DNA of 64,000 nt from a phage, in sequence record PZ445554.1. One strand, 5' to 3'. Below the pieces are notes generated by a model. The model had not been told where the DNA came from. It ran no database searches and was given only the letters and a program-made list of their open reading frames with translations. Both the position numbers and the translations under genes were made by a program. Shown piece by piece: positions 376 to 57,685 of the stretch; position 1 is the first letter of the stretch; the number at the start of each line of letters is the position of its first letter.

Positions 376-414
376 TTTCTAATCTCCGTAATTCTGTATC
401 AGTAGTTGATAGTT

Positions 415-446
415 GTATAGTACCACAGTATGCTTTGGTTGTAAAC
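415..446 (-). promoter_or_regulatory. T4-type early promoter upstream of motA (-35 GTTTAC, extended -10 TGGTACTAT, conserved leader)
   Basis: Minus-strand reading GTTTACAACCAAAGCATACTGTGGTACTATACAACTATCAACTACTGATACAG; same cassette recurs elsewhere in window. Confidence 0.55.
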
Positions 447-3219: not shown

Positions 3220-3413
3220 TTTACACCATTCCAAATTGTTTCAACCACGGATTTTAAACCATTTTGATGAATATCAATTCCGACTACTGTCATCAAATAG
3301 ATTCCAACTACAACTGAACCTAAGGCAAAAATCAGCATGAAAATGAATAAAGCCGGAAAAATATTATCGAAAAACCATTCAATAAATGTAAAAGCACTGC
3401 GTTTACGCTTCAT
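3216..3413 (-). CDS. Small membrane protein (65 aa)
   Basis: ORF track 3216..3434; start trimmed to ATG at 3413 preceded by GAGGAAA; hydrophobic core. Confidence 0.5.
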   Translation of the reverse strand: MKRKRSAFTFIEWFFDNIFPALFIFMLIFALGSVVVGIYLMTVVGIDIHQNGLKSVVETIWNGVK

Positions 3414-3420
3414 ATTTTCC

Positions 3421-3533
3421 TCACATAAATCCAAAGTAAACGTTTAATACATCAATCATTAAAACGATTGGGAATATACTCAAAACTACTAGTATTATAA
3501 CTACATTCCATATAGCTTTAATAATCTTTTTCA
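3421..3533 (-). CDS. Small membrane protein (37 aa)
   Basis: ORF track 3421..3630 N-terminus is a translated promoter leader; real ATG at 3533 after GGAGG; MKKIIKAIWNVVIILVVLSIFPIVLMIDVLNVYFGFM. Confidence 0.4.
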
Positions 3534-3560
3534 TTTTCTGTTCCTCCGTAGTTGATAGGG

Positions 3561-3592
3561 TAATAGTACCACGGAAGAACAGTCTTGTAAAC
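3561..3592 (-). promoter_or_regulatory. T4-type early promoter
   Basis: Minus-strand GTTTACAAGACTGTTCTTCCGTGGTACTATTACC...GGAGGAACAG leader. Confidence 0.5.
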
Positions 3593-3598
3593 AACTTT

Positions 3599-3697
3599 TT
3601 AAAAATATTCGTAATAAATGTGAATACCAACTACTACCGCTGAAACCTGTGCAACCCACCACGCACAAGCAATAAGTACAGAATTCAAAATTTTCAT
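3599..3697 (-). CDS. Small hydrophobic peptide (32 aa)
   Basis: ATG with GAGG Shine-Dalgarno; MKILNSVLIACAWWVAQVSAVVVGIHIYYEYF. Confidence 0.3.
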   Translation of the reverse strand: MKILNSVLIACAWWVAQVSAVVVGIHIYYEYF

Positions 3698-3780
3698 AAT
3701 AACCTCATCACAAAAGTAAATGTTAAACAAATTAATGGAATACTAATTAACCAAACAAAACACCACCATAATGAACTCAT
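3694..3780 (-). CDS. Small hydrophobic peptide (28 aa)
   Basis: ATGA overlap with upstream ORF; MSSLWWCFVWLISIPLICLTFTFVMRLL. Confidence 0.3.
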   Translation of the reverse strand: MSSLWWCFVWLISIPLICLTFTFVMRLL

Positions 3781-4040
3781 AGTTCAATCTCAGCGATTTT
3801 CATTTCATTATTGTTAATAGCATTTTTAAGACTATCCGAAAGAATTACATTCCAGTGGTCATTCATATGACCATTAACTAAGCGTGTAATTTCTTCGGGA
3901 GTTGAAAAATAAGGCGTATCAGACTCCCAATGCGATAATCCTAAGCGAGTATAAATCATGCCTTCATCATCGCTAGAATATTCAACTGACACAAACTCAT
4001 CAGTTATTTTATGTTTAGCGTAATAAAATTTAAATTTCAT
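3777..4040 (-). CDS. Hypothetical protein (87 aa)
   Basis: ORF track 3777..4139; N-terminal 33 codons are the translated promoter leader; real ATG at 4040 after GGAGAG. Confidence 0.55.
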   Translation of the reverse strand: MKFKFYYAKHKITDEFVSVEYSSDDEGMIYTRLGLSHWESDTPYFSTPEEITRLVNGHMNDHWNVILSDSLKNAINNNEMKIAEIEL

Positions 4041-4073
4041 TTTACTCTCCAAATCCGTATCAGTTGATAGTTG

Positions 4074-4104
4074 TATAGTACCACGGTCCTTGTGGTATGT
4101 AAAC
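4074..4104 (-). promoter_or_regulatory. T4-type early promoter with conserved leader
   Basis: Minus-strand GTTTACATACCACAAGGACCGTGGTACTATACAACTATCAACTGATACGGATTTGGAGAG. Confidence 0.55.
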
Positions 4105-4120
4105 CATTTTGTGAAATTTT

Positions 4121-4678
4121 TTAAATGGAAAGATACCATCCGCTGTAGTTGCTTTTTCTTACAACCTTACGAAGGTCTTCTCTATCACCGATGAACTTCG
4201 GAGTGTATTGGATGACACCTGGATGAATTTCTTTAGTGTTGAATATAATTATACAGTCAGCGACTTGATGATTTAGAATGGGCCCTAGATTTATTCCAGA
4301 ACCATATGGATACTCTCCGCTGCATCCTGTTGTCACCGAAATCCAACGTGAGTCAGTTTGATGTGTCTTAACTTCTACACGAAGCCCGCAGTATCTTGGA
4401 TGCGCCAATACATCCCATGCATATGTGTACGGATCATCGACATCTTCTTGACCTTTGTTAACATACCCGCTCAGCCAATCTGCTACAAAAAACTCTGCGT
4501 ACACAGCGATACGGCATCTTTCGATAACTTCTGCCTTATCCTGATTTGGGTTTTGTTTTAAAGAGTATCTTGCAGTATCAACAATTTTGACCTTCATTTC
4601 ACTAGTCAAGTCACTGTTCGATAGGGTAAATGTCGGAATCTGAAATAGTCTCTGTAACCCCGGATTCGTTTTCTGCAT
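4121..4678 (-). CDS. denB: Endonuclease IV DenB
   Basis: ORF track 185 aa (same length as T4 DenB); AAGGAAAG Shine-Dalgarno; adjacent to rIIB region as in T4. Confidence 0.7.
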   Translation of the reverse strand: MQKTNPGLQRLFQIPTFTLSNSDLTSEMKVKIVDTARYSLKQNPNQDKAEVIERCRIAVYAEFFVADWLSGYVNKGQEDVDDPYTYAWDVLAHPRYCGLRVEVKTHQTDSRWISVTTGCSGEYPYGSGINLGPILNHQVADCIIIFNTKEIHPGVIQYTPKFIGDREDLRKVVRKSNYSGWYLSI

Positions 4679-4940
4679 TTAAACTTTCCTTTTTACCACT
4701 AAGATAAGCGTTATACACTTTAAGAGTACCATAGTAAATTCGATCATTTTCATCTAAAGAATTACGATCAAGTTCATCGAGATTCTTTTTGTCCATGACT
4801 ATAACATCATTGCAGTAAAGAACTCCAAGTTTTTCATGCCCAAACTCGAATTTATTGCAGTACACAATATTAGCGTAATGATTACCATGTAGAGAAATTT
4901 CTTTTATGTCGGTGTCACCGATATTCATACAATAAATCAT
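4611..4940 (-). CDS. Hypothetical protein (109 aa)
   Basis: ORF track; ATG at 4938-4940 (rev); 3-prime end overlaps denB start by 68 nt. Confidence 0.5.
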   Translation of the reverse strand: MIYCMNIGDTDIKEISLHGNHYANIVYCNKFEFGHEKLGVLYCNDVIVMDKKNLDELDRNSLDENDRIYYGTLKVYNAYLSGKKESLNAENESGVTETISDSDIYPIEQ

Positions 4941-4957
4941 AATTTACCTTAAAACAA

Positions 4958-4973
4958 AAGGGCCGAAGCCCTT
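4958..4973 (-). terminator. UUCG-tetraloop hairpin (AAGGGC-CGAA-GCCCTT on plus strand)
   Basis: Inverted repeat with CGAA loop, read as C(UUCG)G in the minus-strand transcript. Confidence 0.5.
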
Positions 4974-4976
4974 ATT

Positions 4977-5171
4977 TTATTTGAATTGTTCAATTCTTTT
5001 CTCTAAACAGTCAGCATAAGATTTCATTGAGATAAACTGCGAAAGTAACAGTTCTTGCTCAACTGCACTAACTGTTAGAAACTTTGCGCTTTCTAAAAAT
5101 TTGCTCAGTGCATTAATTTTGAGCATTAATTGATCGTATTCTTCTTTTACTCGTGCTTGATAACCTAACAT
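4977..5171 (-). CDS. Hypothetical protein (64 aa)
   Basis: ORF track; ATG at 5169-5171 (rev). Confidence 0.5.
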   Translation of the reverse strand: MLGYQARVKEEYDQLMLKINALSKFLESAKFLTVSAVEQELLLSQFISMKSYADCLEKRIEQFK

Positions 5172-5185
5172 AATTTTCCTTAGTT

Positions 5186-5201
5186 AAGGGCCGAAGCCCT
5201 T
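5186..5201 (-). terminator. UUCG-tetraloop hairpin at 3-prime end of rIIB
   Basis: AAGGGCCGAAGCCCTT inverted repeat. Confidence 0.5.
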
Positions 5202-6138
5202 ATTTAAATTGTTCAGTAACGTCTTCAACTACTTCGTATTGACAGGTACGCATTTTAGCATCGTTGTAATCAATCGGAATTGATACTACATCACGCGGAT
5301 GTACTTTAACTTTTACAACTCGGCTGGTTGAACTGCCAAAGTGACGAATATAAGATTTAGAACACACATGCAGACCACGAGAACAAGTTTGTGTATCATC
5401 GTCATTCACACGAGTACGTGGCATTTTAACTACTTTACCCGGACTGTTATCAAAGGTGTTTGAGTGACAGTCAAAGTAATTGCTGCGAACTACTTTCCAA
5501 GCATAGAAGTAGCCATCTTCTGTAATTTCAATATCGTTTGCTACCAAGAAATCAAAGAGTCGAGATACTGCTTTTTGGCTTGGGTTTTCCAGCAGATTTT
5601 CCAAGAACGGAAAATAAAATTCAAAGTTTTCGCCTTTTTCCATCGAGTCAAGAATACGATCAACCAAACCAGACCGCAATTCAATATTTTGATAGAACAA
5701 GCTTCCACCTTCAATTCGAACATCGCCGGAAATATATTTTTCAACAGCGCGACGAACATTAATTTTTTGTGCCGCTTCTTCCAACTTATCCGCTACAAGC
5801 AGATTAAGAATTTCCTGGAAGTTTGAATGAGTATTAGGAGTTGCGTTATAAGTTACACCGTCAACAGTAATTGAAATGAATTTTTTAGATGCATTCCAAA
5901 TAATGTCAGATTTAGCAACTGGAGCAATAACTGCATCGCTATTAACTTTAACTGTAATATCACCGCTAATAGTAACTTTAGGGCGTTTAGCTTCTTCAGC
6001 ATTTTTCAAAACACGACGGATTGTGTCAACCGATACATCCTTCCAATAAGCTAATTCCTGCTGAGTGTAATTACCACTTGAATACAGTTTAACAATTTCA
6101 GCTTGTTCGTTTTTGGTCAGGCATTTAATATTGTACAT
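5200..6138 (-). CDS. rIIB: rIIB protein
   Basis: ORF track 312 aa; N-terminus MYNIKCLTKNEQAEIVKLYSS and length match recalled T4 rIIB; directly downstream of rIIA. Confidence 0.9.
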   Translation of the reverse strand: MYNIKCLTKNEQAEIVKLYSSGNYTQQELAYWKDVSVDTIRRVLKNAEEAKRPKVTISGDITVKVNSDAVIAPVAKSDIIWNASKKFISITVDGVTYNATPNTHSNFQEILNLLVADKLEEAAQKINVRRAVEKYISGDVRIEGGSLFYQNIELRSGLVDRILDSMEKGENFEFYFPFLENLLENPSQKAVSRLFDFLVANDIEITEDGYFYAWKVVRSNYFDCHSNTFDNSPGKVVKMPRTRVNDDDTQTCSRGLHVCSKSYIRHFGSSTSRVVKVKVHPRDVVSIPIDYNDAKMRTCQYEVVEDVTEQFK

Positions 6139-6149: not shown

Positions 6150-8327
6150 TTAGGCCGCAAGGGCCTTCATAGTTTTAGCGATTTGAGAAACTTCATCATC
6201 ACTTAAAGAGTTGCGATATCCGATGAAGTCGGAAACAATACGGAATTTCTTGGTAAACTCAGCAACCATTTTATCACTGTTTTTTGAAGCATTATTTGAT
6301 AATACATCAAAAAGATTAGTTACTGTCCAGATGTCATGACCGATGGTATCTTTTCCACCATTAAAATATACACCGCGCAATGAACTAACTATATTAGCGA
6401 GTCGTGTATATTCTTCAGAAACTTCATCTGTACTGAAGTACTTCATCATAAAATCTAGTTCAGGATACTTGATAATTTTATCAATATATCGTTGAGCTGA
6501 ACTTGAATAACCTACGTACTTATCATAATCTACATCATCAAAAGCATCTACATATAAATCACGCAGAGTTTCAAAAATACATTGGCACTGACCGAGTTCT
6601 TTTACCTTTTTCTGCAAAAGCGGACGAATAACATAAAACTCATTAATGCCAATAAGATTAGCCATACGAATCAAAATATTCATAGATGGATGACAAAGAG
6701 ATGTAGTACCATCCATAGAGAAAATATCAGAACGATGCATATACGCTACATAACCAGTAATTTCATCTGCTTCTGATGTGAGCGTAAATAGTTCCTCTTT
6801 TTCCCAGCGCCCGTCTTTAATTTCAAACTTAAATGCTGTAGCAGCTTTAGGACGAGGAGCTTTACTTTTAACTACCTTTGGAATATAACTTTTTACTAAA
6901 GCTTCAATTTCTGACAAATAATGAATGTTAACTTCATCACTTTCAAACATCGCCATAATGTCAGGAAGTAAATCAATCTGCGATTCTACTTCTGGGTTAA
7001 TAAACAGAAGGCGTTCGTTATGATGAATATTCAAAGTGTTATTAAATTCACTATCATCTAATGCATGCGCTAATCCACGGACAATATTAACACGATTTTT
7101 AATATTGTCAATAACGATATTAATTTTTGTTGTATTAATACCAAACAGACGATAACTTGATGCAACGGCTGAAGTTTCATGACTTTGCTTAATGCGTTTC
7201 AGTCGAGGGTCAAGATTTACTTCATACACAACTCCTGCATTGCATAACTTACTGTCAGGTTCAAACATGCTTTGCATCTTTTTATATGACAGATTTTTAG
7301 TCGTGAATTTGACTGAATTACTAATCATATAATCTCGAGCAGAATATCCCATCTTCATCAATTCACGATATGTGTGACGAGGAGATGTAGATTCTTTAAA
7401 TCGTTTTACATCTTCATTAAATGCTTTCTCACTGAGTTCTTTAACTCGTTCAATAATATTTTTACGAGTACGATCATCTAGTGAAAGAGCTTCGCGTGAT
7501 GGAGCAATATCAAGCGAACCCATTGGAAACTTAATGTAATTCACTTCATTACGAATGCTTAGCCAGTTACGGTCTTTAATAACACCATCGATAGGATAAA
7601 CAATACCGCCATAGATAGCATATAATCCACCACGATCAGGCCAGTATCTTTCTGGATTTACGCCGTAATAATCATCAAAATCCGGAAAATAATCAATTTC
7701 GCGGTCAAGACCATTAATGATAGCCAAATCTTTGAATGGTCGCATGATATAAGAAACTTCATAAGCAAAGTTTCTAAAGTCTTTTTCTTCAACTGGAACT
7801 ACGATTTCAATACCAGTTTTATCATCTGGACCCATTTCTTTTACGAATGTAGGTTTAATCTGTGGACCATCACCATCCATGTAAGCTACATAACCACGAA
7901 TTTCACCTTTATGATACGAAGTAATACTAAATGTATCAGTATAACTAAATGGAGATTTAGAACCTAAACCAAATCCGCCAATAAAGTCATTAGATTCAGC
8001 CTTAGATGAACTGAAGTATGAATTATACAGACCAGGAGAATTATCATCACCTTGAATATCAAAATCACTCATACCCGGACCAAAATCTCGGCAAACAAAT
8101 CGCGGGTCTAATCGTCCTGGAACTTGAATGATAAATTTTTCAGGATTTCCATTGAGAGCATGGGCATCAATCATGTTAGTAATCAATTCACGGACTACTG
8201 CGCGAATCTTGTTTGTATACAAATCAGATGACAGAATTTTAAATACTTTAGGAGATGCTGTGATGCTAAATGCTTTTGATTTAGAACCATTACCAAGAAT
8301 TGTTTCTTTTTCAGTGGTGATAATCAT
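6150..8327 (-). CDS. rIIA: rIIA protein
   Basis: ORF track 725 aa; N-terminus [20 protein letters not shown] and length match recalled T4 rIIA. Confidence 0.9.
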
Positions 8328-8541: not shown

Positions 8542-8565
8542 TTCAATATCCTCATTTGCCCAATT

Positions 8566-8596
8566 AATTATACCACATCCTTGTGGTAAAGTAAAC
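8566..8596 (-). promoter_or_regulatory. T4-type early promoter (GTTTAC-N17-TGGTATAAT) with palindromic spacer CCACAAGGATGTGG
   Basis: Minus-strand GTTTACTTTACCACAAGGATGTGGTATAATTAATTGG; overlaps gene 39 stop. Confidence 0.55.
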
Positions 8597-10413
8597 TACT
8601 GACTCATCCATTCTTTACGAAGGTCAGCATTATCTCCCATGAGCATTTCAAAAAGCTCTTTCCAGTTCTCAGGAAGTTTAACAACATCATATACTGGATT
8701 TTGAATCATCTCACGATATTCAGATTTTTCCAAAGAGCCAAGTCCTTTAATATAACGGATGCTATGTTTAGGTAGAGCATCTTTGGCACTCTCATATTCA
8801 GCGACTGTATAAAACCATTCTTGTTTTTTACCGACCTGAGCGATGATTACAGGAGTTTTGACAAAGCGAATTCGTCCTTGCTCAAACAATTCTGGCCAAT
8901 TACTAAAAAATCCAAGCAGAGAAGGATAAATGCTTCCTAGACCATCATGGTCAGCATCAGTCATAATAGCGATATTGTGATAATTCAAGTTTTCAGCTTT
9001 TTCACCGAGAACTAATCCAGTGATTGCGCAAATATCAAATAGTTCTTTGTTTTTAAGCATATCTGCATAAGACATACCCCAACTGTTGAGAACTTTACCG
9101 CGCAATGGATAACCACCGTGAAGTTCTTTATCACGAACATCAATAAGATATCCGATAGCCGAATCACCCTCAGTTAAAAATAATGTAGTATCAGCATCTT
9201 TACCACAAAGATTCGCTTTGATATGTTTATGAACCTTAGCTTTAGAAGCCTTTTTAGCTGCTTTAGTTTCTGCTGCTTTTTCTGCCGCCAATTTACGAGC
9301 CAAAGCAGCTTCAATAATCGGCATTAGAATTGCTTCATTATTCAAAATAGCACGTGAAATCTTTTTAGCGTCAAGTTGAATATGACTACGAATTTCGCCA
9401 AATGGAGAAGTCAAACGCTCTTTAGTTTGAGAATCAAATCGCATGTTTTTCATATCACGAACAAACATAACGATAGTCAAACATTCTTTGACACGCGCTT
9501 TAGTCACATCAATTTTGAACTTACGTTTGATTTGTGGAATAAGGTCTTCACAAATATCATCCATAACACAGTCAATGTGATGGCCACCATTCTTAGTATG
9601 AATGTTATTGACGTATGTTAATTGACGAAAACCATCCGGTGAACGACCAACCGCAATAGAACAATTTTCTTGTTCTTGAACGATAGCATGTTCATCATAC
9701 TGTCGTGCATATTTCTTAAAATTGCCCTGAACCTTTTTACCATTAAAGGTAAATTGAATATCAGGATAAACTACCGCAAGTGTCTGGAGACGATCTAGTG
9801 TAATGTCAAGATAAACTTGGGACAGCTCATTAGTTTCAAATGACATAAAATCAGGAATGAAAGTAACACGAGTTCCTTTCCATTTTCCAGGAATATCTTC
9901 CCATGATTTATTTTCCATGCCGTTTGAACAACGAACTACAATATTATTTTGACCGTCACCAGTTTCACCGACAAACATCGCAGAAAAAATGTTTGTCAAA
10001 CTAGAACCAACGCCATTCATACCGCCAGTGACGCGTTCTTTATCATCACCAAAGTTACCACCTGCTTTTGGAATAGTCCATGCAGCAACTGGACCAGGAA
10101 TTTCTTCACCGGTAGGTGTTTTAACCATCGCTTGTGGAATACCGCGACCGTTATCTTCAACTGTTACCTGATTATTTTTAATGGTAACATTAATTTTATT
10201 TGCGAATTTAAACTTAGTACGAATACCTTCATCTACTGAGTTATCGATAATTTCATCAATAAGCTTAACAAGACCAGGTACATACTGAACACTTTCCCAT
10301 TTACCAAACAGAAAGCGCTCATGCATTTCATTAGCAGAAGAGCCAATGTACATGCCACTACGCTTTTTGATATGTTCAATATCGCTCAGAATTTTAATTT
10401 CATTCTTAATCAT
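8596..10413 (-). CDS. 39: DNA topoisomerase II large subunit gp39, single uninterrupted gene (605 aa)
   Basis: ORF track 606 aa from GTG; ATG one codon in (MIKNEIKILSD); GyrB-type ATPase motifs (EDNGRGIP); C-terminal region that T4 encodes in gene 60 is fused in frame. Confidence 0.9.
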   Translation of the reverse strand: MIKNEIKILSDIEHIKKRSGMYIGSSANEMHERFLFGKWESVQYVPGLVKLIDEIIDNSVDEGIRTKFKFANKINVTIKNNQVTVEDNGRGIPQAMVKTPTGEEIPGPVAAWTIPKAGGNFGDDKERVTGGMNGVGSSLTNIFSAMFVGETGDGQNNIVVRCSNGMENKSWEDIPGKWKGTRVTFIPDFMSFETNELSQVYLDITLDRLQTLAVVYPDIQFTFNGKKVQGNFKKYARQYDEHAIVQEQENCSIAVGRSPDGFRQLTYVNNIHTKNGGHHIDCVMDDICEDLIPQIKRKFKIDVTKARVKECLTIVMFVRDMKNMRFDSQTKERLTSPFGEIRSHIQLDAKKISRAILNNEAILMPIIEAALARKLAAEKAAETKAAKKASKAKVHKHIKANLCGKDADTTLFLTEGDSAIGYLIDVRDKELHGGYPLRGKVLNSWGMSYADMLKNKELFDICAITGLVLGEKAENLNYHNIAIMTDADHDGLGSIYPSLLGFFSNWPELFEQGRIRFVKTPVIIAQVGKKQEWFYTVAEYESAKDALPKHSIRYIKGLGSLEKSEYREMIQNPVYDVVKLPENWKELFEMLMGDNADLRKEWMSQ

Positions 10414-10440: not shown

Positions 10441-10466
10441 ATTATACTCCGGTAATCATAAAGCTA
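10441..10466 (-). promoter_or_regulatory. Possible middle promoter for gene 39 (MotA-box-like TAGCTTTA, 12 nt, TATAAT)
   Basis: Minus-strand TTTAGCTTTATGATTACCGGAGTATAAT. Confidence 0.35.
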
Positions 10467-10483
10467 AAGGCCCGAAGGCCTTT
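10466..10483 (-). terminator. UUCG-tetraloop hairpin (AAAGGCC-CGAA-GGCCTTT)
   Basis: Perfect inverted repeat directly after stop of upstream gene. Confidence 0.5.
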
Positions 10484-10743
10484 TATTTAAAACGAATAGT
10501 TGAATCCTTAAAGAACAGCCCAGAACATACTGTTCCTTCTACTTTCTGCCCAGTAGGTCCAATAGCACGAAATCCAGTATGTTGGAAATCATTTTCAGAA
10601 CAACCAAACCAATTATATCCAGTGATTTCAATATTAGTAAAACCACTTGAAGATAAAACTTTGGTTGCATTATCAGCATCAGTACATCCTGCTAAAGACA
10701 CTGCTAATACTAATGCCGCGATAGAACGATTAATATATTTCAT
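10483..10743 (-). CDS. Putative lipoprotein (86 aa)
   Basis: ORF track 10483..10752 (GTG); ATG at 10743; signal peptide with lipobox LAGC (MKYINRSIAALVLAVSLAGCTD). Confidence 0.55.
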   Translation of the reverse strand: MKYINRSIAALVLAVSLAGCTDADNATKVLSSSGFTNIEITGYNWFGCSENDFQHTGFRAIGPTGQKVEGTVCSGLFFKDSTIRFK

Positions 10744-11933: not shown

Positions 11934-12033
11934 AATTTCCTCATTAATTGAACATTGGAGCGATGCGTTTCAGAAGAGTATCAGCGCACCTTTAACGAAT
12001 TATCCATTTTATTCTTCAAGTTGTTTTCTGTAT

Positions 12034-12072
12034 CAGTAGTTGATATTGATATAGTACCATAATCAACTACTG
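12034..12072 (-). repeat. 11 bp inverted repeat (CAGTAGTTGAT ... ATCAACTACTG) flanking a promoter-like TGGTACTATA box
   Basis: Read directly from sequence between motB and upstream ORF. Confidence 0.5.
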
Positions 12073-12104
12073 ATGTATATAGTTTTATGAAAAAATTTTA
12101 AACT

Positions 12105-12596: not shown

Positions 12597-12640
12597 AATT
12601 ATCTCTCACTTGTTAAAAAGATTTTATACTCCACAGGACC

Positions 12641-12670
12641 ATTATACTCTGGTCCCAAGAGTTTGTAAAC
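12641..12670 (-). promoter_or_regulatory. T4-type early promoter (GTTTACA-N18-TATAAT)
   Basis: Minus-strand GTTTACAAACTCTTGGGACCAGAGTATAATGG. Confidence 0.5.
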
Positions 12671-13684: not shown

Positions 13685-13709
13685 TTTATTATCCTCAGTA
13701 GCTATGGTG

Positions 13710-13741
13710 TTATAATACCACAACTAACCGAGGAAGTAAAC
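13710..13741 (-). promoter_or_regulatory. T4-type early promoter
   Basis: Minus-strand GTTTACTTCCTCGGTTAGTTGTGGTATTATAAC. Confidence 0.5.
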
Positions 13742-17540: not shown

Positions 17541-17574
17541 ATTTTTCTCACATCTTACGGACGGTTAACTACTT

Positions 17575-17606
17575 ATACTATAACATTTTTACCTTAACTT
17601 GTAAAC
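17575..17606 (-). promoter_or_regulatory. T4-type early promoter
   Basis: Minus-strand GTTTACAAGTTAAGGTAAAAATGTTATAGTAT. Confidence 0.5.
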
Positions 17607-18886: not shown

Positions 18887-18910
18887 GATAGCCTCCGTAT
18901 ACTTCAGAAG

Positions 18911-18942
18911 CTATCATATCATCGTTAGAAAGGAAAGTAAAC
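18911..18942 (-). promoter_or_regulatory. T4-type early promoter
   Basis: Minus-strand GTTTACTTTCCTTTCTAACGATGATATGATAG. Confidence 0.5.
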
Positions 18943-21000: not shown

Positions 21001-21026
21001 AATGCTCTCCTCTATAAGATAATTCT

Positions 21027-21056
21027 ATTATACCATACTCATTTTGGAAAGTAAAC
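21027..21056 (-). promoter_or_regulatory. T4-type early promoter (GTTTAC-N17-GTATAAT)
   Basis: Minus-strand GTTTACTTTCCAAAATGAGTATGGTATAATAG. Confidence 0.55.
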
Positions 21057-22263: not shown

Positions 22264-22336
22264 TATTTTTCCTTTCAATTCATGGATTAATAGATTAATT
22301 ATACAATAAATATATAAAGCAATAAGGAGGATATAT

Positions 22337-24393: not shown

Positions 24394-24419
24394 GATAATC
24401 TCCTCAGTAGTTTATGTTT

Positions 24420-24451
24420 ATATAGTATCTCAATTTCCAACAAAAGTAAAC
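24420..24451 (-). promoter_or_regulatory. T4-type early promoter
   Basis: Minus-strand GTTTACTTTTGTTGGAAATTGAGATACTATAT. Confidence 0.5.
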
Positions 24452-24895: not shown

Positions 24896-24924
24896 AACAA
24901 TCTCCTCATTTAACCAACAAGACT

Positions 24925-24954
24925 ACTATACCATAGTCTTGTCAGCTTGTAAAC
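24925..24954 (-). promoter_or_regulatory. T4-type early promoter with palindromic spacer
   Basis: Minus-strand GTTTACAAGCTGACAAGACTATGGTATAGTAGTCTTG. Confidence 0.5.
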
Positions 24955-26735: not shown

Positions 26736-27909
26736 TAAATTCTTCCATATCACTTAACTGTTCGAGGTCAGTTTCTAAATCAGCAGCTGATTTACTTTTA
26801 CTTTCTGGAGATTTAAATTTTTCAACCTTTGAGTTAATCAATTCATCAACTTCAGCTTCAACAATTTCATTACTATCAATAGCACCTAACTGATAAGCAC
26901 GTTTAATAGCATCTCGGAATGGTTGATGCTTAAATAAAGGACCCCAGAATGTAGTGCAATTGGTATCTTTTGCACGCCAAGATTTTTCTTCGCGAATCAT
27001 CTCGCCGGTTTCTTCATCAAGAAATTCACGAGCATACCAGCCATTTTTAGGTTTTACCACGAATCCTAATTCTAGAGCCATATCTAACAATCCAGAATAA
27101 GGATCGATACCACCGTCAAATTTAACATCAATAAAGAATTTACTTTTTTCTTTAACGGTACGAGATTTTTCTACATTTAGAACAAATTGATACCCCTGAA
27201 GATCGGAACCATCTTTAATCTGGCGCTTACCGATAATGAATACAGTATCAGCCGAATACATTACGCCTGTACCACCTGTCATCACGGTTTTACTAAACAT
27301 TTCAATTGTTTCAATTGTATGGTTAACCGCAACACATGGAATATTTTTAATGCTAAAATAAGGAGTAACAATACGGAATAATGACTTCAGTGATTTAGCA
27401 CGAGTCATATCTGCCACAGATTTTTCATTCAAGGCATCTTCAGTTTCTTTCTTGGAAGCCATATTACCAATTGAGTCGATGAATACAATAACTTTTTCAC
27501 CGCGCTCAATAGCTTCAAGCTGGTTCACCATATCAATTTTCAGCTGTTCAACTGACTGGATTGGCGTATGAATTACTCGTTCCGGGTCAACTCCCATGGA
27601 TCGCAAATAAGCTGGAGTAATACCAAATTCGCTATCATAGAATAGACAAACCGCGTCAGAATATTTGTTCAAATACGCTGCAACCATAGTCAAAGACATA
27701 TTTGATTTAAAGTGTTTAGAAGGACCTGCGAAAATAGTTAAACCAGACTGCATACCGCCATCAATCGCACCAGAAATAGCGATATTAAGCATTGGGATTT
27801 TTGTACGGATTACATCCTTTTCATTAAAGAATTTAGATGTAGTCAGTTCAGCAGTCATTTTAGAAGTGGAAGCTTTAATCAAACGGGATTTTAAATCTGC
27901 AATAGACAT
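26728..27909 (-). CDS. uvsX: UvsX recombinase (RecA-like)
   Basis: ORF track 393 aa; RecA-fold motifs; N-terminus M..DLKSRLIKASTSK as recalled for UvsX. Confidence 0.9.
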   Translation of the reverse strand: MSIADLKSRLIKASTSKMTAELTTSKFFNEKDVIRTKIPMLNIAISGAIDGGMQSGLTIFAGPSKHFKSNMSLTMVAAYLNKYSDAVCLFYDSEFGITPAYLRSMGVDPERVIHTPIQSVEQLKIDMVNQLEAIERGEKVIVFIDSIGNMASKKETEDALNEKSVADMTRAKSLKSLFRIVTPYFSIKNIPCVAVNHTIETIEMFSKTVMTGGTGVMYSADTVFIIGKRQIKDGSDLQGYQFVLNVEKSRTVKEKSKFFIDVKFDGGIDPYSGLLDMALELGFVVKPKNGWYAREFLDEETGEMIREEKSWRAKDTNCTTFWGPLFKHQPFRDAIKRAYQLGAIDSNEIVEAEVDELINSKVEKFKSPESKSKSAADLETDLEQLSDMEEFNE

Positions 27910-27986
27910 TCATTTTTTCCATAGGCATCATTATATTTTCCTCACTGGTTAAAGATAGAGTAATTATAACACAATAAATTTAGGCA

Positions 27987-28829
27987 TTAATCAACTGCTA
28001 TTGGATGAATAGCATTAAACTTATGAAATGCTTCTGATTTTTCTTTACGCGAAACACACATGCGAAGAACCTTTAGTGGTTCATCTTCTTCACCCAACGA
28101 TTTTCGTTTTTCAATATTAGAAGTTTTCCAACGAGCTTGCTCTGGAAACTCTCTATTGATTTGCTCAAGCGCTCTATTATGTTTAGAATTACTACGAATT
28201 GAACTGCACCCGCCAGGAGCTTGTGCTTTTCCAGATACAACCAGATATTTGAACAAGGCCAAATGCGGATAACCTTGATTAATTAAATTGAGAAATGCAT
28301 ACATATCTTCGCATAAATCAATTTTTCCATACCCAATTTGTTCTGTGGTAAGTTTTCCGAGGTCATACCATGTATTCGTGAATCCGTATGAATTTTCACG
28401 ATAATTACCCCAAGATGAAGTAATTTTAAAAATAGGTAGACGAGCATGGCCATGATAATACCCGCAATCCATGGCATCTTCAACGTATTGAATCAATTCA
28501 TAGAACTGTTCACGAGTCAATTGATTGACTTTATCTGCGCAGCGCCGATCATCTCTCTTTCGCATTGAACTCATACGAATAGTAGTATCATCGTCAATCA
28601 TCCAGATTCGTTGACCTGCATACATATCAGTAATTGCTTTACGAGTTCCAGCAATTCCGTTGACATCATCAGGAATAGTTATAATTTTAGCTCTAGACCC
28701 ATAGGCATCATAATAAGCTTTTTCTTCGTGTTCACGCACTACAATATGCGGTTCATAATCAGTCGGAAACATATCAAGGGCAGAAACTGCCCCTACACGT
28801 TGATAGCTTGGAATTACGAATTGAATCAT
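27987..28829 (-). CDS. Putative glycosyltransferase (DxD motif) at the beta-gt locus; candidate beta-glucosyl-HMC alpha-glucosyltransferase
   Basis: ORF track 27987..28835 (GTG); ATG at 28829 overlapping gene 42 stop (ATGA); IWMIDDDTT DxD motif; not similar to recalled T4 beta-gt. Confidence 0.6.
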   Translation of the reverse strand: MIQFVIPSYQRVGAVSALDMFPTDYEPHIVVREHEEKAYYDAYGSRAKIITIPDDVNGIAGTRKAITDMYAGQRIWMIDDDTTIRMSSMRKRDDRRCADKVNQLTREQFYELIQYVEDAMDCGYYHGHARLPIFKITSSWGNYRENSYGFTNTWYDLGKLTTEQIGYGKIDLCEDMYAFLNLINQGYPHLALFKYLVVSGKAQAPGGCSSIRSNSKHNRALEQINREFPEQARWKTSNIEKRKSLGEEDEPLKVLRMCVSRKEKSEAFHKFNAIHPIAVD

Positions 28830-29566
28830 TTCCACTCACCATTATAATCTTTTTTCACAATATGAGTTTCGCCAGTATTCCACCAATGATCAACCAAGTA
28901 AAAATGACGAGAATATACATGAAGACTTCCAACATTCCATATAATAGAACCTGCTTTATACTGACGAGTTGAATCGCCTGCATTCAAATCAGATACTAAT
29001 TTATCTAATACGTATTTTTGCCATGCATAATCATTACGGAATCCGAAGACCACATCATTTGAGCGCATGCTTACTACTGCATTGACTTTCTTATCACGAA
29101 TCAGGTACTGTACTGTATTAGTACACATGAAATCTGACATACCATCTTTATTGTAGTCAAATTGCATGGATGGACGAGTATAAATCATGATACCACGTCG
29201 AGAATCAGGATTTTGACCAAGTTCAGCTAAACACATATCATACTGAGCATAGTTATCTTCTGACCAGATAGCCCAACCATAATTCGAGTTAATTTCGCCT
29301 TTAGAAGATGCTACCTGCTGCCAAATCTTTGGTGTTTCACCTGGAATATCTTTAACAAACAAGCTCTTAGATTTATACCATTCAAGTTCACGCTGAATGT
29401 ATTCATCATTAAGAGCGCCAAAAATAAACGGTTCATCTGCTACAAATGATGCGCCAATAATTTCAATAGTTTTAACGCCAGTTTTATCAACTACGAAATC
29501 TTTTTCTTTTAATGCAAGCCCCAAATGAAGACGGATTTCTTCAACTGTCATAGAGTCACTAATCAT
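28826..29566 (-). CDS. 42: dCMP hydroxymethylase gp42
   Basis: ORF track 246 aa, same length as T4 gp42; thymidylate-synthase-like fold motifs. Confidence 0.9.
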   Translation of the reverse strand: MISDSMTVEEIRLHLGLALKEKDFVVDKTGVKTIEIIGASFVADEPFIFGALNDEYIQRELEWYKSKSLFVKDIPGETPKIWQQVASSKGEINSNYGWAIWSEDNYAQYDMCLAELGQNPDSRRGIMIYTRPSMQFDYNKDGMSDFMCTNTVQYLIRDKKVNAVVSMRSNDVVFGFRNDYAWQKYVLDKLVSDLNAGDSTRQYKAGSIIWNVGSLHVYSRHFYLVDHWWNTGETHIVKKDYNGEWK

Positions 29567-29978: not shown

Positions 29979-30359
29979 TCACTTAGTCAAATTTTTTACG
30001 CATGAATTATAAGAATTCACTACATACTCCATCGGAGCATTTTTACCGGTACGCCATTGGTAATTATTAGCCCAATTTGCCCAAATTTCAGCACAGTAGT
30101 TTTCAATTTTTTCTTCGCGTGTAATTACATCCGAATTACGATATGCTTGAGCAGATTCATCTGGACGAATAGCTTCGTCAAAATTCGCCTGCATTTGTTC
30201 TACTGTTTGCTTTGGAGCTTCTTTATAACACTTGACATTAGGATTATAAAACTTGCTTGAACAGTTTACAATTTTTCCTACATCAGACTGATTTACTACC
30301 GGTCCTTGAGCTACACAACCAGTAAGACCTAATGCAATAACCAAAATAGCGATTTTCAT
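29979..30359 (-). CDS. Putative lipoprotein (126 aa)
   Basis: ORF track 29979..30371 (TTG in leader); ATG at 30359 after GGAGAATGAA; lipobox LTGC. Confidence 0.55.
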   Translation of the reverse strand: MKIAILVIALGLTGCVAQGPVVNQSDVGKIVNCSSKFYNPNVKCYKEAPKQTVEQMQANFDEAIRPDESAQAYRNSDVITREEKIENYCAEIWANWANNYQWRTGKNAPMEYVVNSYNSCVKNLTK

Positions 30360-30393
30360 TTCATTCTCCAAATCCGTATCAGTTGATAGTTGT

Positions 30394-30423
30394 ATAGTAC
30401 CATGGAAGAACAGGGATGTAAAC
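30394..30423 (-). promoter_or_regulatory. T4-type early promoter with conserved leader
   Basis: Minus-strand GTTTACATCCCTGTTCTTCCATGGTACTATACAACTATCAACTGATACGGATTTGGAGAATG. Confidence 0.55.
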
Positions 30424-38777: not shown

Positions 38778-39793
38778 TGTGTTGCCTCTACATATAGCTG
38801 ATTTGCATATTGAATAAGTGCTTCACGATCAGAATCAGTGATGTCTGGAATTGCATTAATATACTCTTCCATTAATGTCTGAAGCGATTGAACTTCAACT
38901 TCTTCACTGTCATCTGACTCGACAGAGTTATCAATCTTTGACACAACTCGTAATGAATGCACAACTTTTTCTAGTTCAGATTCGAATTTCGTCAGATTTT
39001 TGTCTACTTCAGTTACTATAACACGTACTGATAGATTTGTAAAATCTTTATAGTCAATTTTTCCTTTAAATGGATAATGAATTCTACGATGCCAGGTAGT
39101 ATTGTTTGGAATAAATTCCATTCGTTCTGTTTCTGTATCAAACATCCAGAACCCACGAGGGTCATTCTCGTCACCTGCTGTTAGTGTCCATGGTGTCCCA
39201 ATATATCTGACGTTTGCAGCCTCAGAAATAGTATGGAAGTGACCAGACCACACTTCTTTATAAGTCTTAAGGAAATCAGGTTCAAGACCGTGAGATTTCA
39301 TTCCTTTATAAAAATAAAATCCATTCAGTTCCCAGTGACCAACACAAAAAGAAGCAGATGAAGTTTTGATGTGTTCAAGAATTTCACCAGTATTTTCTTC
39401 GCACATCCAAGGAATTAAATCAATCAAACACCCGTCAAAATCTACTGTAGTAGGCTTATCATATACTTTAACATTAGGATATTTAGCCAAAAGCTCAGTA
39501 GAGGCATTTGGATGCATTACATTTTTGTAGTGGAGATCGTGATTTCCTACAATAGTATGTAATGTGATTCCAGCGTCATCAAGCATTTGAACTATTTCAC
39601 GGGCAAACTCCATAGTTTTATGTGTGATTGCTTTTCGCACATCAAAAATATCACCATATTGAATCCATACAGTAATTCCATTTTTCTTAGAATATTCTAT
39701 CGCTTGCTTAATTCCATCAATTTGAATACCGCGAATCCACTCATCATCAGCTTTAACGCCTAAATGCCAATCACCCAAGTTTAGTATTTTCAT
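38774..39793 (-). CDS. 47: Recombination nuclease subunit gp47 (Mre11/SbcD-like)
   Basis: ORF track 339 aa; phosphoesterase motifs LGDWHLG, GNHD. Confidence 0.9.
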   Translation of the reverse strand: MKILNLGDWHLGVKADDEWIRGIQIDGIKQAIEYSKKNGITVWIQYGDIFDVRKAITHKTMEFAREIVQMLDDAGITLHTIVGNHDLHYKNVMHPNASTELLAKYPNVKVYDKPTTVDFDGCLIDLIPWMCEENTGEILEHIKTSSASFCVGHWELNGFYFYKGMKSHGLEPDFLKTYKEVWSGHFHTISEAANVRYIGTPWTLTAGDENDPRGFWMFDTETERMEFIPNNTTWHRRIHYPFKGKIDYKDFTNLSVRVIVTEVDKNLTKFESELEKVVHSLRVVSKIDNSVESDDSEEVEVQSLQTLMEEYINAIPDITDSDREALIQYANQLYVEATQ

Positions 39794-40555: not shown

Positions 40556-40573
40556 AAGGGCCGAAGCCCTTTA
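40556..40573 (-). terminator. UUCG-tetraloop hairpin overlapping a-gt stop
   Basis: AAAGGGCCGAAGCCCTTT perfect inverted repeat. Confidence 0.5.
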
Positions 40574-41773
40574 TTTTGTAATAATGTCAAACTGTTCTTT
40601 AAAGCAGAAGCTTGAATCTTGATGCTGATACAAAAATTCATATGCTTTTTCTCGCTCACGGTCATAAAGAGCTCGGTCAGATGACAGTTCTTTAATACGT
40701 TCAAATGTTGATTCCATGTCATTTTCATCAAACCAAATGATACCGCTATCATGCGAGGTCAAAGGAGTATTATCAACACGGAATTTTAAATTTTCGCCAG
40801 TAGATTTCCAAAATACCGGAATTGTTCCACATGCACCAAGCTCGAGATGAGTATATTCTAAAGAACGTTGTAGATATTTTTTATCCAACTTACTCAACTG
40901 ATAACCAAAACCGGATTTACTCATGCGTTCAAGCATTTCGCTATTTACATAACGGTCAAGAATTTGCGTTGGCAAATTAGGAGCAATTTTAATTTGGTCT
41001 ACTTGATGAAGACGATAATACTCGTATGGAATTCCTTTTTCTTTAATAGGAATGAACGCTGGAGAACGTTCCAGACCTTCCATAATAGTACTTAGTCCTG
41101 CAGGTTTAAGATGTTTTTCGTGAAAATCAAACATCTGATAAAAACCTTTCCATGTAGTCGTACGACCAATCCAACGATTGATATTCATGTTAATTTCAGA
41201 AACATCTTTCCAGTAGGTTGACCGAACCTTCGCAATATCCATAGGAGGCTGAAAGTTATATACTGTCGGCGCTTCTTCAATATCATCAAATAAAGAAACT
41301 GTTTCAGGATACCACTCTTTCATCAGAACTTTATTAAAATCACCATTATCAGAATGACTAAAAATAACATCAGCTCGACGAACAGTTTCTTCTAATCCCA
41401 AATTTCGGCGCAAAGAAAGAGAAGAGTGGTCATGTTGATAAACTACAACACGAACCGAAGGTTTAATGTTATCAATAATTTTTTTATAGTTATTAATAGT
41501 GTCTTCTTCAACTGAAGTAGCAGGAACTGAATTGATAATTAGAATATCACAATCATTTACCAGCTTAAGTGTTTTATCGTATTCTTTTGCCAATAAAACC
41601 GGAATTGAAAATGATTTATAATCATGTGCACAGTTACGAGTAAATGATTTATCTTTAGCATAAACCAAAGTTACTTCATGACCATTTTTAATAAACCAAT
41701 CACGTTGCTCAAGAGAAAATTTAGTTACACCACAACCTTCAAGACCCCGAGCCATAAAAATACATACTTTCAT
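40571..41773 (-). CDS. a-gt: Alpha-glucosyltransferase
   Basis: ORF track 400 aa; N-terminus M.ICIFMARGLEGCGVTKFSLEQRDWFIKNGHEV matches recalled T4 a-gt. Confidence 0.85.
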   Translation of the reverse strand: MKVCIFMARGLEGCGVTKFSLEQRDWFIKNGHEVTLVYAKDKSFTRNCAHDYKSFSIPVLLAKEYDKTLKLVNDCDILIINSVPATSVEEDTINNYKKIIDNIKPSVRVVVYQHDHSSLSLRRNLGLEETVRRADVIFSHSDNGDFNKVLMKEWYPETVSLFDDIEEAPTVYNFQPPMDIAKVRSTYWKDVSEINMNINRWIGRTTTWKGFYQMFDFHEKHLKPAGLSTIMEGLERSPAFIPIKEKGIPYEYYRLHQVDQIKIAPNLPTQILDRYVNSEMLERMSKSGFGYQLSKLDKKYLQRSLEYTHLELGACGTIPVFWKSTGENLKFRVDNTPLTSHDSGIIWFDENDMESTFERIKELSSDRALYDREREKAYEFLYQHQDSSFCFKEQFDIITK

Positions 41774-41797
41774 TTAATATCCTCTTTGTTTTGGTTT

Positions 41798-44194: not shown

Positions 44195-44210
44195 AAGGGC
44201 CGAAGCCCTT
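44195..44210 (-). terminator. UUCG-tetraloop hairpin
   Basis: AAGGGCCGAAGCCCTT. Confidence 0.5.
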
Positions 44211-44541: not shown

Positions 44542-44548
44542 ATTTTCC

Positions 44549-44842
44549 TCAGCTGTAACGATAACACTCGTTTGATTTACGTTTAGCAACTCGTTGAGAA
44601 GTATTATAATCAAAATCATCGTCAATGTAAACTGATTTTTTCAACTTTCTTACTTCACCGCGTAATTGACGATTTAACTCATCTTTAACTTCTGAATCAA
44701 TACCTTTCATTCTACGCCATTTATCTGAGCGAAAAATGTTTTCAACCATATCTTTATGACTTACACCATCAGGAGCTTTACGCTTTCCGAAATAGTCATA
44801 ATCACGAACTTTCAAGTCTTTACGACGATACGTTTTACCCAT
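44549..44842 (-). CDS. Hypothetical basic protein (97 aa)
   Basis: ORF track 44549..44881 (GTG); ATG at 44842 after AAGGAA. Confidence 0.5.
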   Translation of the reverse strand: MGKTYRRKDLKVRDYDYFGKRKAPDGVSHKDMVENIFRSDKWRRMKGIDSEVKDELNRQLRGEVRKLKKSVYIDDDFDYNTSQRVAKRKSNECYRYS

Positions 44843-45017: not shown

Positions 45018-45047
45018 ATCAATTCCTCAAAGGTAATTCATATGTTA

Positions 45048-45078
45048 ATAATACCATGGTTTGAACTTGTTGTAAACA
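45048..45078 (-). promoter_or_regulatory. T4-type early promoter
   Basis: Minus-strand GTTTACAACAAGTTCAAACCATGGTATTATTAAC. Confidence 0.5.
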
Positions 45079-53244: not shown

Positions 53245-53271
53245 ATTAATCTCCTCAGTAGAAAGTAAGAA

Positions 53272-53303
53272 CATTATACCACATCCTTGTGGCAAAGTAA
53301 ACT
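53272..53303 (-). promoter_or_regulatory. T4-type early promoter, near-identical to the rIIA.1 promoter (palindromic spacer CCACAAGGATGTGG)
   Basis: Minus-strand GTTTACTTTGCCACAAGGATGTGGTATAATG. Confidence 0.5.
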
Positions 53304-56219: not shown

Positions 56220-56246
56220 TTTGTGTTCCTCCGTAGTTGATAGTTG

Positions 56247-56277
56247 TATAGTACCACAGAGGAACAGTCTTGTAAAC
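56247..56277 (-). promoter_or_regulatory. T4-type early promoter with conserved leader
   Basis: Minus-strand GTTTACAAGACTGTTCCTCTGTGGTACTATACAACTATCAACTACGGAGG. Confidence 0.55.
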
Positions 56278-56683: not shown

Positions 56684-57652
56684 TTATTTCAGAAGAGTAA
56701 CCTCAGCAATTTCTTCCCAACCGTTTTTGTCGGTCATAATAAAGTCAGCAAGATAAAGTGCAGTACGCAGTGAAACATTGCGTAAACGATTAACATTGAC
56801 TTTCATCCATGATAATGCTTTATAAGTTTCTTCATCAGAAAGACCGCGCTTTTGCATCATGTCAGTTGAAAGAATAACATCTTCAACCCTGACCATAATT
56901 TCTTCATTAGTGTGAACACCCAAATCCAAATAAACTGAGCGGGACACTAATGCTTGTAAATGTGGAGCAAGTTTAGTACCACGGTCTAATTCGCGGTCAA
57001 TATCAACGTTTGTGATAAAAACAATTGTTCCTTTAAATTCAAACTCACGGTCAATGCCTTTTTCTTCTAAGTAAGAAGATGCAGTACTCCAGCAGACTTT
57101 ACGGGTCTCTCCAGTGTCCAGAGCAGCTTTCAGAAGATTAAGAATGTCCATATCAGAGAAAACATCCACATCATCAATCAAAAGGACAGAATTCTCTTCA
57201 CGATTATTCCAAAGCTGCTCATAAAGACCGATACCAGAGATTTTACCATTAATGCTTTTATACTCAATGTATCCAATATCATTTGCTTTATTTAAAGCTT
57301 TATCTAAAGAATACGTTTTACCAATACCCGCCGCACCAGAGATAATTAATGAACGAATGTTTCCGTTAATAATACCATTCGTCATCATTCCCATAACATT
57401 AAATCTTTTATTAATGCGGGTTTTCATATCTTCATATGATTCTTTAACTTCTTCAACTTTTACGCCATCATATGAAATGTCTGATTTGTAAACCCAAACA
57501 CCGCGACGTTTACCGTCAATTTCAACAAAAACTTTACCATCTCCTTGTGCATCTACCGGAGCATTATCTGGGAACCATTCGCCTAAGAGCTCAAAAGTTC
57601 CAGAGATTTCTTTACCGAAGTAGATACCCTTATTGATAGTTACAGTTTTCAT
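56684..57652 (-). CDS. P-loop NTPase (AAA-like ATPase), unknown function
   Basis: ORF track 56684..57664; ATG at 57652 after conserved leader; Walker A GAAGIGKT, Walker B VLLIDDVD. Confidence 0.65.
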   Translation of the reverse strand: MKTVTINKGIYFGKEISGTFELLGEWFPDNAPVDAQGDGKVFVEIDGKRRGVWVYKSDISYDGVKVEEVKESYEDMKTRINKRFNVMGMMTNGIINGNIRSLIISGAAGIGKTYSLDKALNKANDIGYIEYKSINGKISGIGLYEQLWNNREENSVLLIDDVDVFSDMDILNLLKAALDTGETRKVCWSTASSYLEEKGIDREFEFKGTIVFITNVDIDRELDRGTKLAPHLQALVSRSVYLDLGVHTNEEIMVRVEDVILSTDMMQKRGLSDEETYKALSWMKVNVNRLRNVSLRTALYLADFIMTDKNGWEEIAEVTLLK

Positions 57653-57685
57653 TTTATTCTCCAAATCCGTATCAGTTGATAGTTG

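Follow-up and report, generated by a model that had tools for sequence, protein, structure and literature searches.

The DNA considered here is a phage sequence of 64,000 nucleotides (record PZ445554.1; hereafter the window, which means the whole of this stretch), and the element under study is a short cassette at positions 4041-4104 of its minus strand, directly 5' of an 87-amino-acid open reading frame (ORF). The window is a segment of a Tequatrovirus (T4-like phage) genome that extends from motA, past rIIA/rIIB, to about 61 kb on the T4 map. Colinearity with T4 begins at ~163.2 kb, crosses the rIIB/rIIA origin of the map and continues to ~61.1 kb, interrupted by ~21 insertions, deletions or replacements, and almost all of the genes in the region lie on the minus strand. 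A similarity search with a 5-kb piece around the cassette gave 647 matching records, 259 of which span most of the query, and revealed 96-99% identity to hundreds of Tequatrovirus genomes, with Shigella phage SHFML-26 (98.6%) as the top match. On its own strand the cassette reads GTTTAC, ATACCACAAGGACCG, TGG, TACTAT, ACAACT and ATCAACTGATACGGATTTGGAGAGTAAA, followed by the ATG at 4040, and the distance from the GGAG of the leader to this ATG is six nucleotides (Table 1).

Table 1. Parts of the 4041-4104 cassette, its sister cassettes and the further early promoters of the window (promoter roles are predicted)
Feature	Positions	Strand	Remarks
A/T-rich UP-element-like region, -37 to -62	4105-4130	-	carries TTTCACAAAA; overlaps the denB stop codon
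-35 element GTTTAC, -36 to -31	4099-4104	-	fits the T4 early consensus in PMC1524935
Variable 15-nt spacer ATACCACAAGGACCG	4084-4098	-	
Extended -10, TGG plus TACTAT	4075-4083	-	
Discriminator ACAACT	4069-4074	-	
28-nt leader ATCAACTGATACGGATTTGGAGAGTAAA	within 4041-4074	-	GGAG at 4047-4050
87-aa ORF, phrog_2390	3777-4040	-	function unknown; directly downstream of the cassette
Sister cassette upstream of motA	376-446	-	core same to +19, then motA leader with GGAG; identical in T4 at 163649
Cassette of ndd.4 ortholog, leader type B	3535-3592	-	spacer plus TGGT pairs with ACTACGGAGGAACAG, which holds the Shine-Dalgarno
Cassette upstream of imm.1	30359-30423	-	37-nt core and leader same as 4047-4083
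Cassette of nrdC.9 ortholog, leader type B	56220-56277	-	hairpin over the Shine-Dalgarno
Cassette of nrdC.10 ortholog	57653-57716	-	same 37-nt core and leader; 3' end GGAGAATAAAA is the exact RegB/S1 consensus
Cassette of mobD.5 ortholog	61231-61288	-	core same to +4, own leader after
Decayed copy, cef-motB intergenic	12026-12102	-	-35 is ATATAC; T4 counterpart at ~6560-6640
Ordinary early promoter	13685-13741	-	strong hairpin over the Shine-Dalgarno
Ordinary early promoter upstream of dmd ortholog	24896-24954	-	15-bp hairpin with the -10 hexamer as its loop
Ordinary early promoter, paralog of the one at 24930	60419-60476	-	hairpin kept via G-U and compensatory changes
Early promoter of rIIA.1 ortholog	8542-8596	-	same architecture
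Early promoters	12597-12670, 17541-17606, 18887-18942, 21001-21056, 24394-24451	-	same architecture
Early promoters	44542-44632, 45018-45077, 53245-53302; -10 at 39015-39020	-	same architecture

The cassettes of this family are very probably T4-like immediate-early promoters (class Pe), each of them fused with its gene's own 5' leader and ribosome-binding site. A single layout is found in all of the sites: an A/T-rich UP region, GTTTAC at -36 to -31, TGn and a TAnnnT hexamer, with 15 nt between GTTTAC and TGn. The A/T-rich UP-like signal (A-rich at -40 to -44) is apparent in both the information content and the consensus at -54 to -40, with -48 to -45 (TTTC) and -40 (A) conserved across copies. 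All of the sites are on the coding strand, 19-55 nt 5' of a Shine-Dalgarno plus ATG, and the genes downstream are orthologs of T4 pre-replicative genes (motA, the ndd genes, imm.1, the nrdC.x genes and others). Moreover, T4 has the same cassettes at the orthologous places, namely at motA (163649), ndd.4 (166783), ndd.6 (167062), imm.1 (27056), nrdC.9 (53919), nrdC.10 (55360), mobD.5 (58756), e.8 (70672) and frd.3 (146851). The record of the Yersinia phage fPS-90 carries a "predicted early promoter" both at the orthologous site downstream of denB and at the motA site; the T4 GenBank record, in which we looked for promoter features, has none.

In the published T4 early consensus, positions -36 to -31 are GTTTAC, -40 to -44 are rich in A, a stretch ahead of -12 is rich in G and T, -11 is A and -7 is T (PMC1524935), and these promoters have been called "uber" UP/-35/TGn/-10 promoters with "additional regions of consensus" (Hinton 2010, PMC2988021). 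When the window cassettes are compared with this consensus, as the initial annotation had proposed, the layout agrees with both descriptions. The T4 promoters Pe35.3, Pe40.4 and Pe148.6 have transcription starts mapped by primer extension at 35,662, 41,225 and 150,727 (PMC6024815), and in our own scan their -10 hexamers begin at T4 35674, 41237 and 150739, which puts the first base of the hexamer exactly 12 nt upstream of +1 in all three. Two of these promoters, Pe35.3 and Pe40.4, have their orthologs at 39020 and 44608 of the window. Since the same 12-nt rule can be applied to the 4041-4104 cassette, its start is predicted to be the A of ATCAAC at 4068, giving a leader of 28 nt. Mapped start sites lying away from the cassettes would have contradicted the promoter assignment; for the family they coincide with the model at the three mapped T4 promoters on which this was checked, Pe35.3, Pe40.4 and Pe148.6. 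Our literature searches for genome-wide T4 start-site maps, or for mapped 5' ends of TACTAT-class copies, found none.

The resemblance to the Pe promoters of T4 (PMC2988021; search consensus in Nolan et al. 2006, PMC1524935) thus includes the layout, the distance to the start and the genomic positions, and T4 itself has identical cassettes 5' of motA, ndd.4, imm.1, nrdC.9 and nrdC.10, with no essential difference. Two minor differences are that the copies identical to 4041-4104 (class A) have ACTGAT in three of three cases in the window, whereas two of the three T4 copies have ACTACTGAT, and that the ndd-locus copy of the window would drive the 87-aa ORF, which T4 does not have. In such promoters, unmodified host sigma-70 RNA polymerase would bind the UP region (~-60 to -38), GTTTAC, the TGn of the extended -10 and the TAnnnT hexamer (TACTAT in the cassette subclass). 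Transcription would begin 12 nt past the first base of the hexamer and yield a leader of 19-55 nt that ends in a GGAG or GAGG Shine-Dalgarno 5-9 nt ahead of the ATG. A generic sigma-70 scan proved uninformative as evidence, with 9 sites against 8.5 expected in 2 kb; the T4-specific pattern alone discriminates.

How often the cassette is repeated depends on the stringency with which it is defined. The pattern GTTTAC-N15-TGGTA has 14 matches in the window, all on the minus strand, against 0.01 expected. A 37-nt core plus leader, TGGTACTATACAACTATCAACTGATACGGATTTGGAG, occurs exactly at 4047-4083, 30366-30402 and 57659-57695 (minus strand; 0 expected), and a 22-nt core, TGGTACTATACAACTATCAACT, has with ≤3 mismatches seven copies, at 404, 4062, 12038, 30381, 56235, 57674 and 61246 (again 0 expected). 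The copy at 3535-3592 has TACC where the others have ACAA. A looser scan finds ~20 sites with invariant spacing, and the repeated cassettes span 60-90 bp. The -35 hexamer GTTTAC is exact in 19 of the 19 window promoters over which it, and the false ORF extensions discussed below, were counted. All seven of the sites that the initial annotation listed as near-identical (~410, 3560, 4070, 30390, 56245, 57685 and 61255) were recovered, as were its nine variants (12030, 13710, 17575, 18910, 21027, 24420, 24925, 45048 and 60448), the 12030 copy having a degenerate -35 (ATATAC). To these we can add sites at 8572, 12646, 44608 and 53278, along with the Pe35.3 ortholog at 39020.

Its reading of these repeats as early promoters plus leaders is borne out by the architecture, the orthologous T4 cassettes and the matching T4 start sites. 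Some of its details need adjustment. The gap between GTTTAC and TGG is 15 nt rather than the 17 proposed, although 17 is correct if the -35 is read as TTTACA and the count is made to TACTAT. Similarly, a near-identical leader had been claimed for all of the main copies; the whole leader is common to just three, while seven share the stretch from -15 to ~+7, after which these seven core copies diverge into four leader types. Finally, false N-terminal extensions in the mechanical ORF calls, also proposed there, do occur, but at 8 of the 19 sites: the call at 3777-4139 (real start 4040) contains a false 33-aa extension that crosses the promoter, and another example is 3421-3630 (real start 3534).

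Conservation does run past the -35/-10, as had been remarked. It is built of three layers, which are promoter-proximal sequence, the 3' end and a mosaic leader middle. In the first of these, the information content across the seven copies is near maximal from -6 to +7. A more distant comparison comes from the motA locus of Mosigvirus, Carettavirus and a Klebsiella phage, where the coding sequence is only ~70% identical. Ahead of motA they keep the UP motif TTTTCTCACAAAACA (seen as TTTTCTCACAAAACA-GTTTAC in Mosigvirus and Carettavirus), the -35 hexamer GTTTAC, TGn, the -10 hexamer and, at -2 to +5, CTATCAA, but from ~+6 to the Shine-Dalgarno their leaders are unrelated. Because CTATCAA is kept across genera and the leader is not, long-term constraint must act on the start-site context and not on the remainder of the leader. 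The discriminator and the first transcribed bases (~-6 to +7) may thus belong to the promoter consensus, a role suggested by their conservation.

The second layer is the 3' end of the cassette. RegB, together with ribosomal protein S1, efficiently cleaves T4 early mRNAs at an 11-nt single-stranded site (Durand et al. 2006, PMC1702504), for which the T4 consensus is GGAGAAUAAAA or, more generally, GGAGRAYARAA; motA is a known good RegB substrate (PMC1702504). An exact match to GGAGAAUAAAA is present at 57652-57662, in the cassette at 57692, where it runs into the AUG, and a single mismatch separates it from the copies at 4080 (GGAGAGUAAAA) and 30399 (GGAGAAUGAAA) and from the motA copy. From GGAG through AAUAAAA to the AUG these cassettes therefore equal or nearly equal the RegB/S1 consensus, a likeness limited to the last 11 nt of the cassette and to a predicted site; the type-B leaders (GGAGGAACA) fit it poorly. 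The GGAG and the A-rich stretch that follows could in this way be at once a ribosome-binding site and a target for RegB, the phage endoribonuclease that shuts off early mRNAs, acting with S1 of the host. The third layer, the leader middle from ~+8 to the Shine-Dalgarno, is lineage-specific and mosaic, which fits its spread by recombination between copies.

It is at the imm.1 locus that the mosaicism is clearest. In seven genomes, spacers of the AAGACTG.. and ATCCCTG.. families are associated there with the leader variants ACTACTGAT, ACTGAT and ACTAAT and with two unrelated downstream genes, and all four combinations of gene occur with spacer type, as they do with leader variant. Consequently, there must have been either crossovers within ~30-60 nt or repeated multi-base convergence. 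The scan of IMG/VR behind this comparison gave 22 stretches from a handful of contigs, enough for the four-combination test and not for a formal covariation model. Elsewhere, window 57678-57749 (nrdC.10) and T4 146837-146909 (frd.3) share a block, UP region through +3, at 97% identity, with different leaders and genes behind it. At the 4041-4104 locus itself, fPS-90 has another leader (ATCAGCTACGGAGGAGTAAAAATG), with the spacer and the downstream ORF unchanged. The 87-aa ORF at 3777-4040, which is located between the cassette and ndd.6, is absent from T4, the breakpoint being at ATGAAA, the 3' end of the cassette; all that T4 has of this ORF is a mini-ORF of the final 8 codons (MKIAEIEL), with a stop that overlaps the ndd.6 start codon (ATGA). 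Homologous recombination or gene conversion between copies would be the simplest explanation of how leader middles, and blocks such as UP plus -35 plus spacer, came to be shared by unlinked loci. The ACT/ACTACT indel (ACT in three of three window class-A copies, ACTACT in two T4 copies) was also considered as a sign of concerted evolution; it is suggestive only, since slippage in a tandem triplet gives the same pattern.

Such elements have a history. PeSLs (promoter-early stem-loops) were defined in phages RB49 and phi1, where recombination between copies and PeSL mini-circles were shown (Arbiol et al. 2010, PMC2839356). Comeau et al. (2014, PMC4122927) added T4 and phage PST, gave the consensus as TTTACW-N17-TAYWAT and illustrated an exchange at ndd.4/ndd.5, the same locus as the 4041-4104 cassette. 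Still earlier, Repoila et al. (1994) had seen comparable elements, built on T4 early promoters, at the internal-protein loci (according to PMC2839356). Like PeSLs, the window cassettes are a repeated composite that extends from an A/T-rich region through the -35/-10 to a Shine-Dalgarno and ATG, and they are found in gene-variable regions; many of the window copies also have stem-loops between or over the -35/-10, as in RB49. They differ in that a significant stem-loop is absent from 4041-4104 and from its two exact siblings, and in that the window stems are A/T-richer than the G/C stems of RB49. An association with indels is seen at the 4080 copy (the 87-aa ORF) and at imm.1 (gene variants behind one cassette), but of the ~21 breaks between the window and T4 only 1 adjoins a cassette. 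On the PeSL idea, the cassettes would act as portable junctions for gene shuffling.

The RNA structures predicted for these sites are of two kinds. For 4041-4104, the spacer at 4084-4098 and the following GTGGT can form a weak hairpin of 5-6 bp at most, and folds of this cassette (69 nt) and its two siblings are no better than those of shuffled sequences (z = +0.28, which is not significant, +0.73 and +1.19). A scan of the whole window against Rfam at gathering thresholds gave 0 matches. Other copies behave quite differently. In the regions 3535-3592 (-22.7 kcal/mol, z = -4.96) and 56220-56277 (-20.2 kcal/mol, z = -5.51), the spacer together with TGGT pairs with ACTACGGAGGAACA, the segment that holds the Shine-Dalgarno, to give stems of 14-15 bp. 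The same Shine-Dalgarno-covering stem is found at the 13717 site (z = -5.71), and the 15-bp stems at 24930 (z = -3.98) and 60452 (z = -4.5) enclose just the -10. At several sites, then, the spacer is complementary to its own leader, with hairpins of 10-15 bp around the -10 that often bury the GGAG.

The same tendency is visible on a larger scale. At 41 T4 sites, the spacer pairs with its own downstream 40 nt with a mean of -10.45 kcal/mol, against -6.59 with those of other promoters (0 of 5000 permutations), and in Mosigvirus AV109 the own pairing is -9.62 against -7.09 for the cross pairing, again with 0 of 5000 permutations as good. For the 15 strongest T4 stems, the sense strand gives -19.6 against -14.9 for the antisense (Wilcoxon p = 0.0015), with 25 of the 206 pairs being G-U, and 8 of these 15 stems cover the Shine-Dalgarno. 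At the promoters of regB, denV and the mobD.2a-like gene, the stem is kept between T4 and AV109 while the sequences differ (compensatory changes). It is conceivable, though in our opinion somewhat doubtful, that in about one third of the T4-type early promoters the spacer has been selected for complementarity to its own leader, such that translation and RegB sensitivity depend on the promoter from which the RNA comes. In read-through transcripts, a hairpin would form around the -10 and often hide the GGAG, and with it the RegB site; transcripts from the promoter itself would be without the 5' arm, so that their ribosome-binding site would be free. Secondary structure is known to protect GGAG from RegB. 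The hairpin-free 4041-4104 cassette would then be an "always open" variant. The ribosome-binding sites of T4 e, soc, 49 and I-TevI are hidden in read-through RNA in a similar way (PMC3014915) to what we predict at 3568, 56253 and 13717; in those T4 genes a late promoter lies inside the hairpin, whereas in the sisters of the window, 4041-4104 not being among them, it is an early promoter. The principle of the hairpin is therefore published for e, soc, 49 and I-TevI, and stem-loops at the -10 are part of the PeSL description. The only novelty would be the extension to early promoters and the RNA-level reading, which is possible but largely anticipated.

One spacer family deserves separate mention. 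The form (A/G)CCACAAGGA(T/C)(G/C)G, followed by TGG, is found at 4084-4098, 8576-8590 and 53282-53296 of the window and at 41398 and 40213 of AV109. The (A/G)CCACAAGGA spacers recur in this way in unrelated early promoters and in another genus, and their small CCAC/GTGG hairpin includes the TGn.

Could the identity among the cassettes have some other basis? A class of MotA/AsiA-dependent middle promoters, or of late ones, might be envisaged in place of early promoters, since some of the downstream genes have middle promoters in T4 as well (table in PMC2988021). The MotA box, (a/t)(a/t)(a/t)TGCTTtA centred at -30, is however not matched by the cassettes, which have GTTTAC at -36 to -31 and no TGCTT at -30, and the late consensus TATAAATA is not present at their -10; we regard this alternative as having next to no chance of being correct. 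Hardly better is the proposal that leaders like that of 4041-4104 act in cis as structured RNAs, be it as attenuators, riboswitch-like elements or stabilising hairpins at the 5' end, and that their structure explains the identity, which we consider highly improbable. The strong, selected hairpins of other early promoters in the same genome might encourage it, as might a short inverted repeat, TATCA..TGATA, from -1 to +11 (+14 in the ACTACT variant). Yet the three leader copies fold at the level of shuffled sequences, the window is without any Rfam match, and it is on these two grounds that a structured regulatory RNA at 4041-4104 is ruled out. Moreover, the ACT/ACTACT indel, both forms of which are common, changes the loop of the sole candidate stem from 5 to 2 nt, the leader has been swapped at the same locus in fPS-90, and other genera do not have it. 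We also rejected a stabilising hairpin AUCA..UGAU at the 5' terminus, which has 4 bp only and which the common ACT deletion leaves with a 2-nt loop.

A stronger competitor, although still an unlikely one, is that the cassettes are first of all DNA modules that move or recombine (strict-sense PeSLs, excising as mini-circles), the promoter role being secondary and the identity the result of a recent transposition-like spread. The mosaic combinations at imm.1, the decayed copy at 12026-12102 with its remnant of the start of another gene, the indel of the 87-aa ORF bounded by a cassette and the RB49 and phi1 mini-circles are all in its favor. On the other hand, the cassettes keep stable orthologous positions in the window, in T4 and in other genomes; neither terminal inverted repeats nor target duplications were seen; and across genera it is the promoter elements that are kept and not the remainder of the cassette. 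The spacers, too, are unlike between otherwise identical copies, and just 1 of the ~21 colinearity breaks between the window and T4 adjoins a cassette. These last two observations also count against part of our own account, in which early promoters have exchanged their leaders by recombination. A variable spacer lies between two conserved blocks and differs among copies that are otherwise identical, hence recombination alone is insufficient and selection must also act. The scarcity of breaks at cassettes means that cassette-mediated shuffling is not the main source of the differences between the window and T4, and the idea that cassettes are the main rearrangement sites relative to T4 is unsupported. 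To the same side of the balance belong the absence from 4041-4104 of the stem-loop that is part of the PeSL definition and the fact that the strict RegB pattern is not enriched when taken alone (1 match against 0.38 expected in the window), so that the RegB site is a consistent reading and not proof. Lastly, promoter activity at these exact sites is deduced from homology and from three mapped relatives.

Even with these points granted, the early-promoter assignment describes a feature that is real but already known: T4 promoters of this class have been on record for decades, and the PeSL papers describe such a cassette at this same locus. Its practical value is mostly for annotation. The cassettes mark the true gene starts, where 8 of 19 mechanical ORF calls wrongly cross a promoter, delimit the early transcription units and flag differences in gene content between close relatives. 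In biological terms they restate what is known of T4, whose strong, information-rich early promoters capture the host RNA polymerase. Uniform ribosome-binding sites would let RegB turn the early mRNAs off, and repeated cassettes would offer short landing pads for homologous recombination. No open question is made newly testable by the cassette finding alone.

Some of the further promoters and surrounding sequences have features of their own. In the decayed copy at 12026-12102, the spacer ATCAGTAGTTGAT repeats +1 to +13 exactly, in inverted orientation. This copy is followed by a remnant of 8 codons, MDNSLKVR*, the first codons of another gene, which looks like the beginning of T4 e.8. The T4 ortholog of the promoter at 13685-13741 (T4 8194) is probably the well-studied P8.1, to judge from the name, which is used in PMC2988021, and from the map position.

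Homing-endonuclease genes (mob and seg), the nrdD intron, dam and the split of genes 39 and 60 account for the majority of the other window/T4 differences. Compared with T4, the window does not have the mobA/60.1 insertion that splits the topoisomerase genes 39 and 60, and hence has no gene 60 bypass region; dam, mobB, mobC and the nrdD intron with I-TevII are missing as well, and in place of the segA/beta-glucosyltransferase segment of T4 there is unrelated DNA. These differences are located at 8932-8995, 22304-22323, 27898-28843, 41765-41788, ~46586 and ~47863. There is also a G/C-rich hairpin, AAGGGCCGAAGCCCTT (or GGCCCGAAGGCC), in at least 5 copies (4958-4973, 5186-5201, 10458-10488, 40556-40571 and 44195-44210). 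The copies at 4958 and 5185, which are the only ones within the scanned region 3300-5300, are terminator-like, the former on both strands, and the GGGC...GCCC arms of this hairpin recall a motif at T4 deletion endpoints (cited in PMC2839356).

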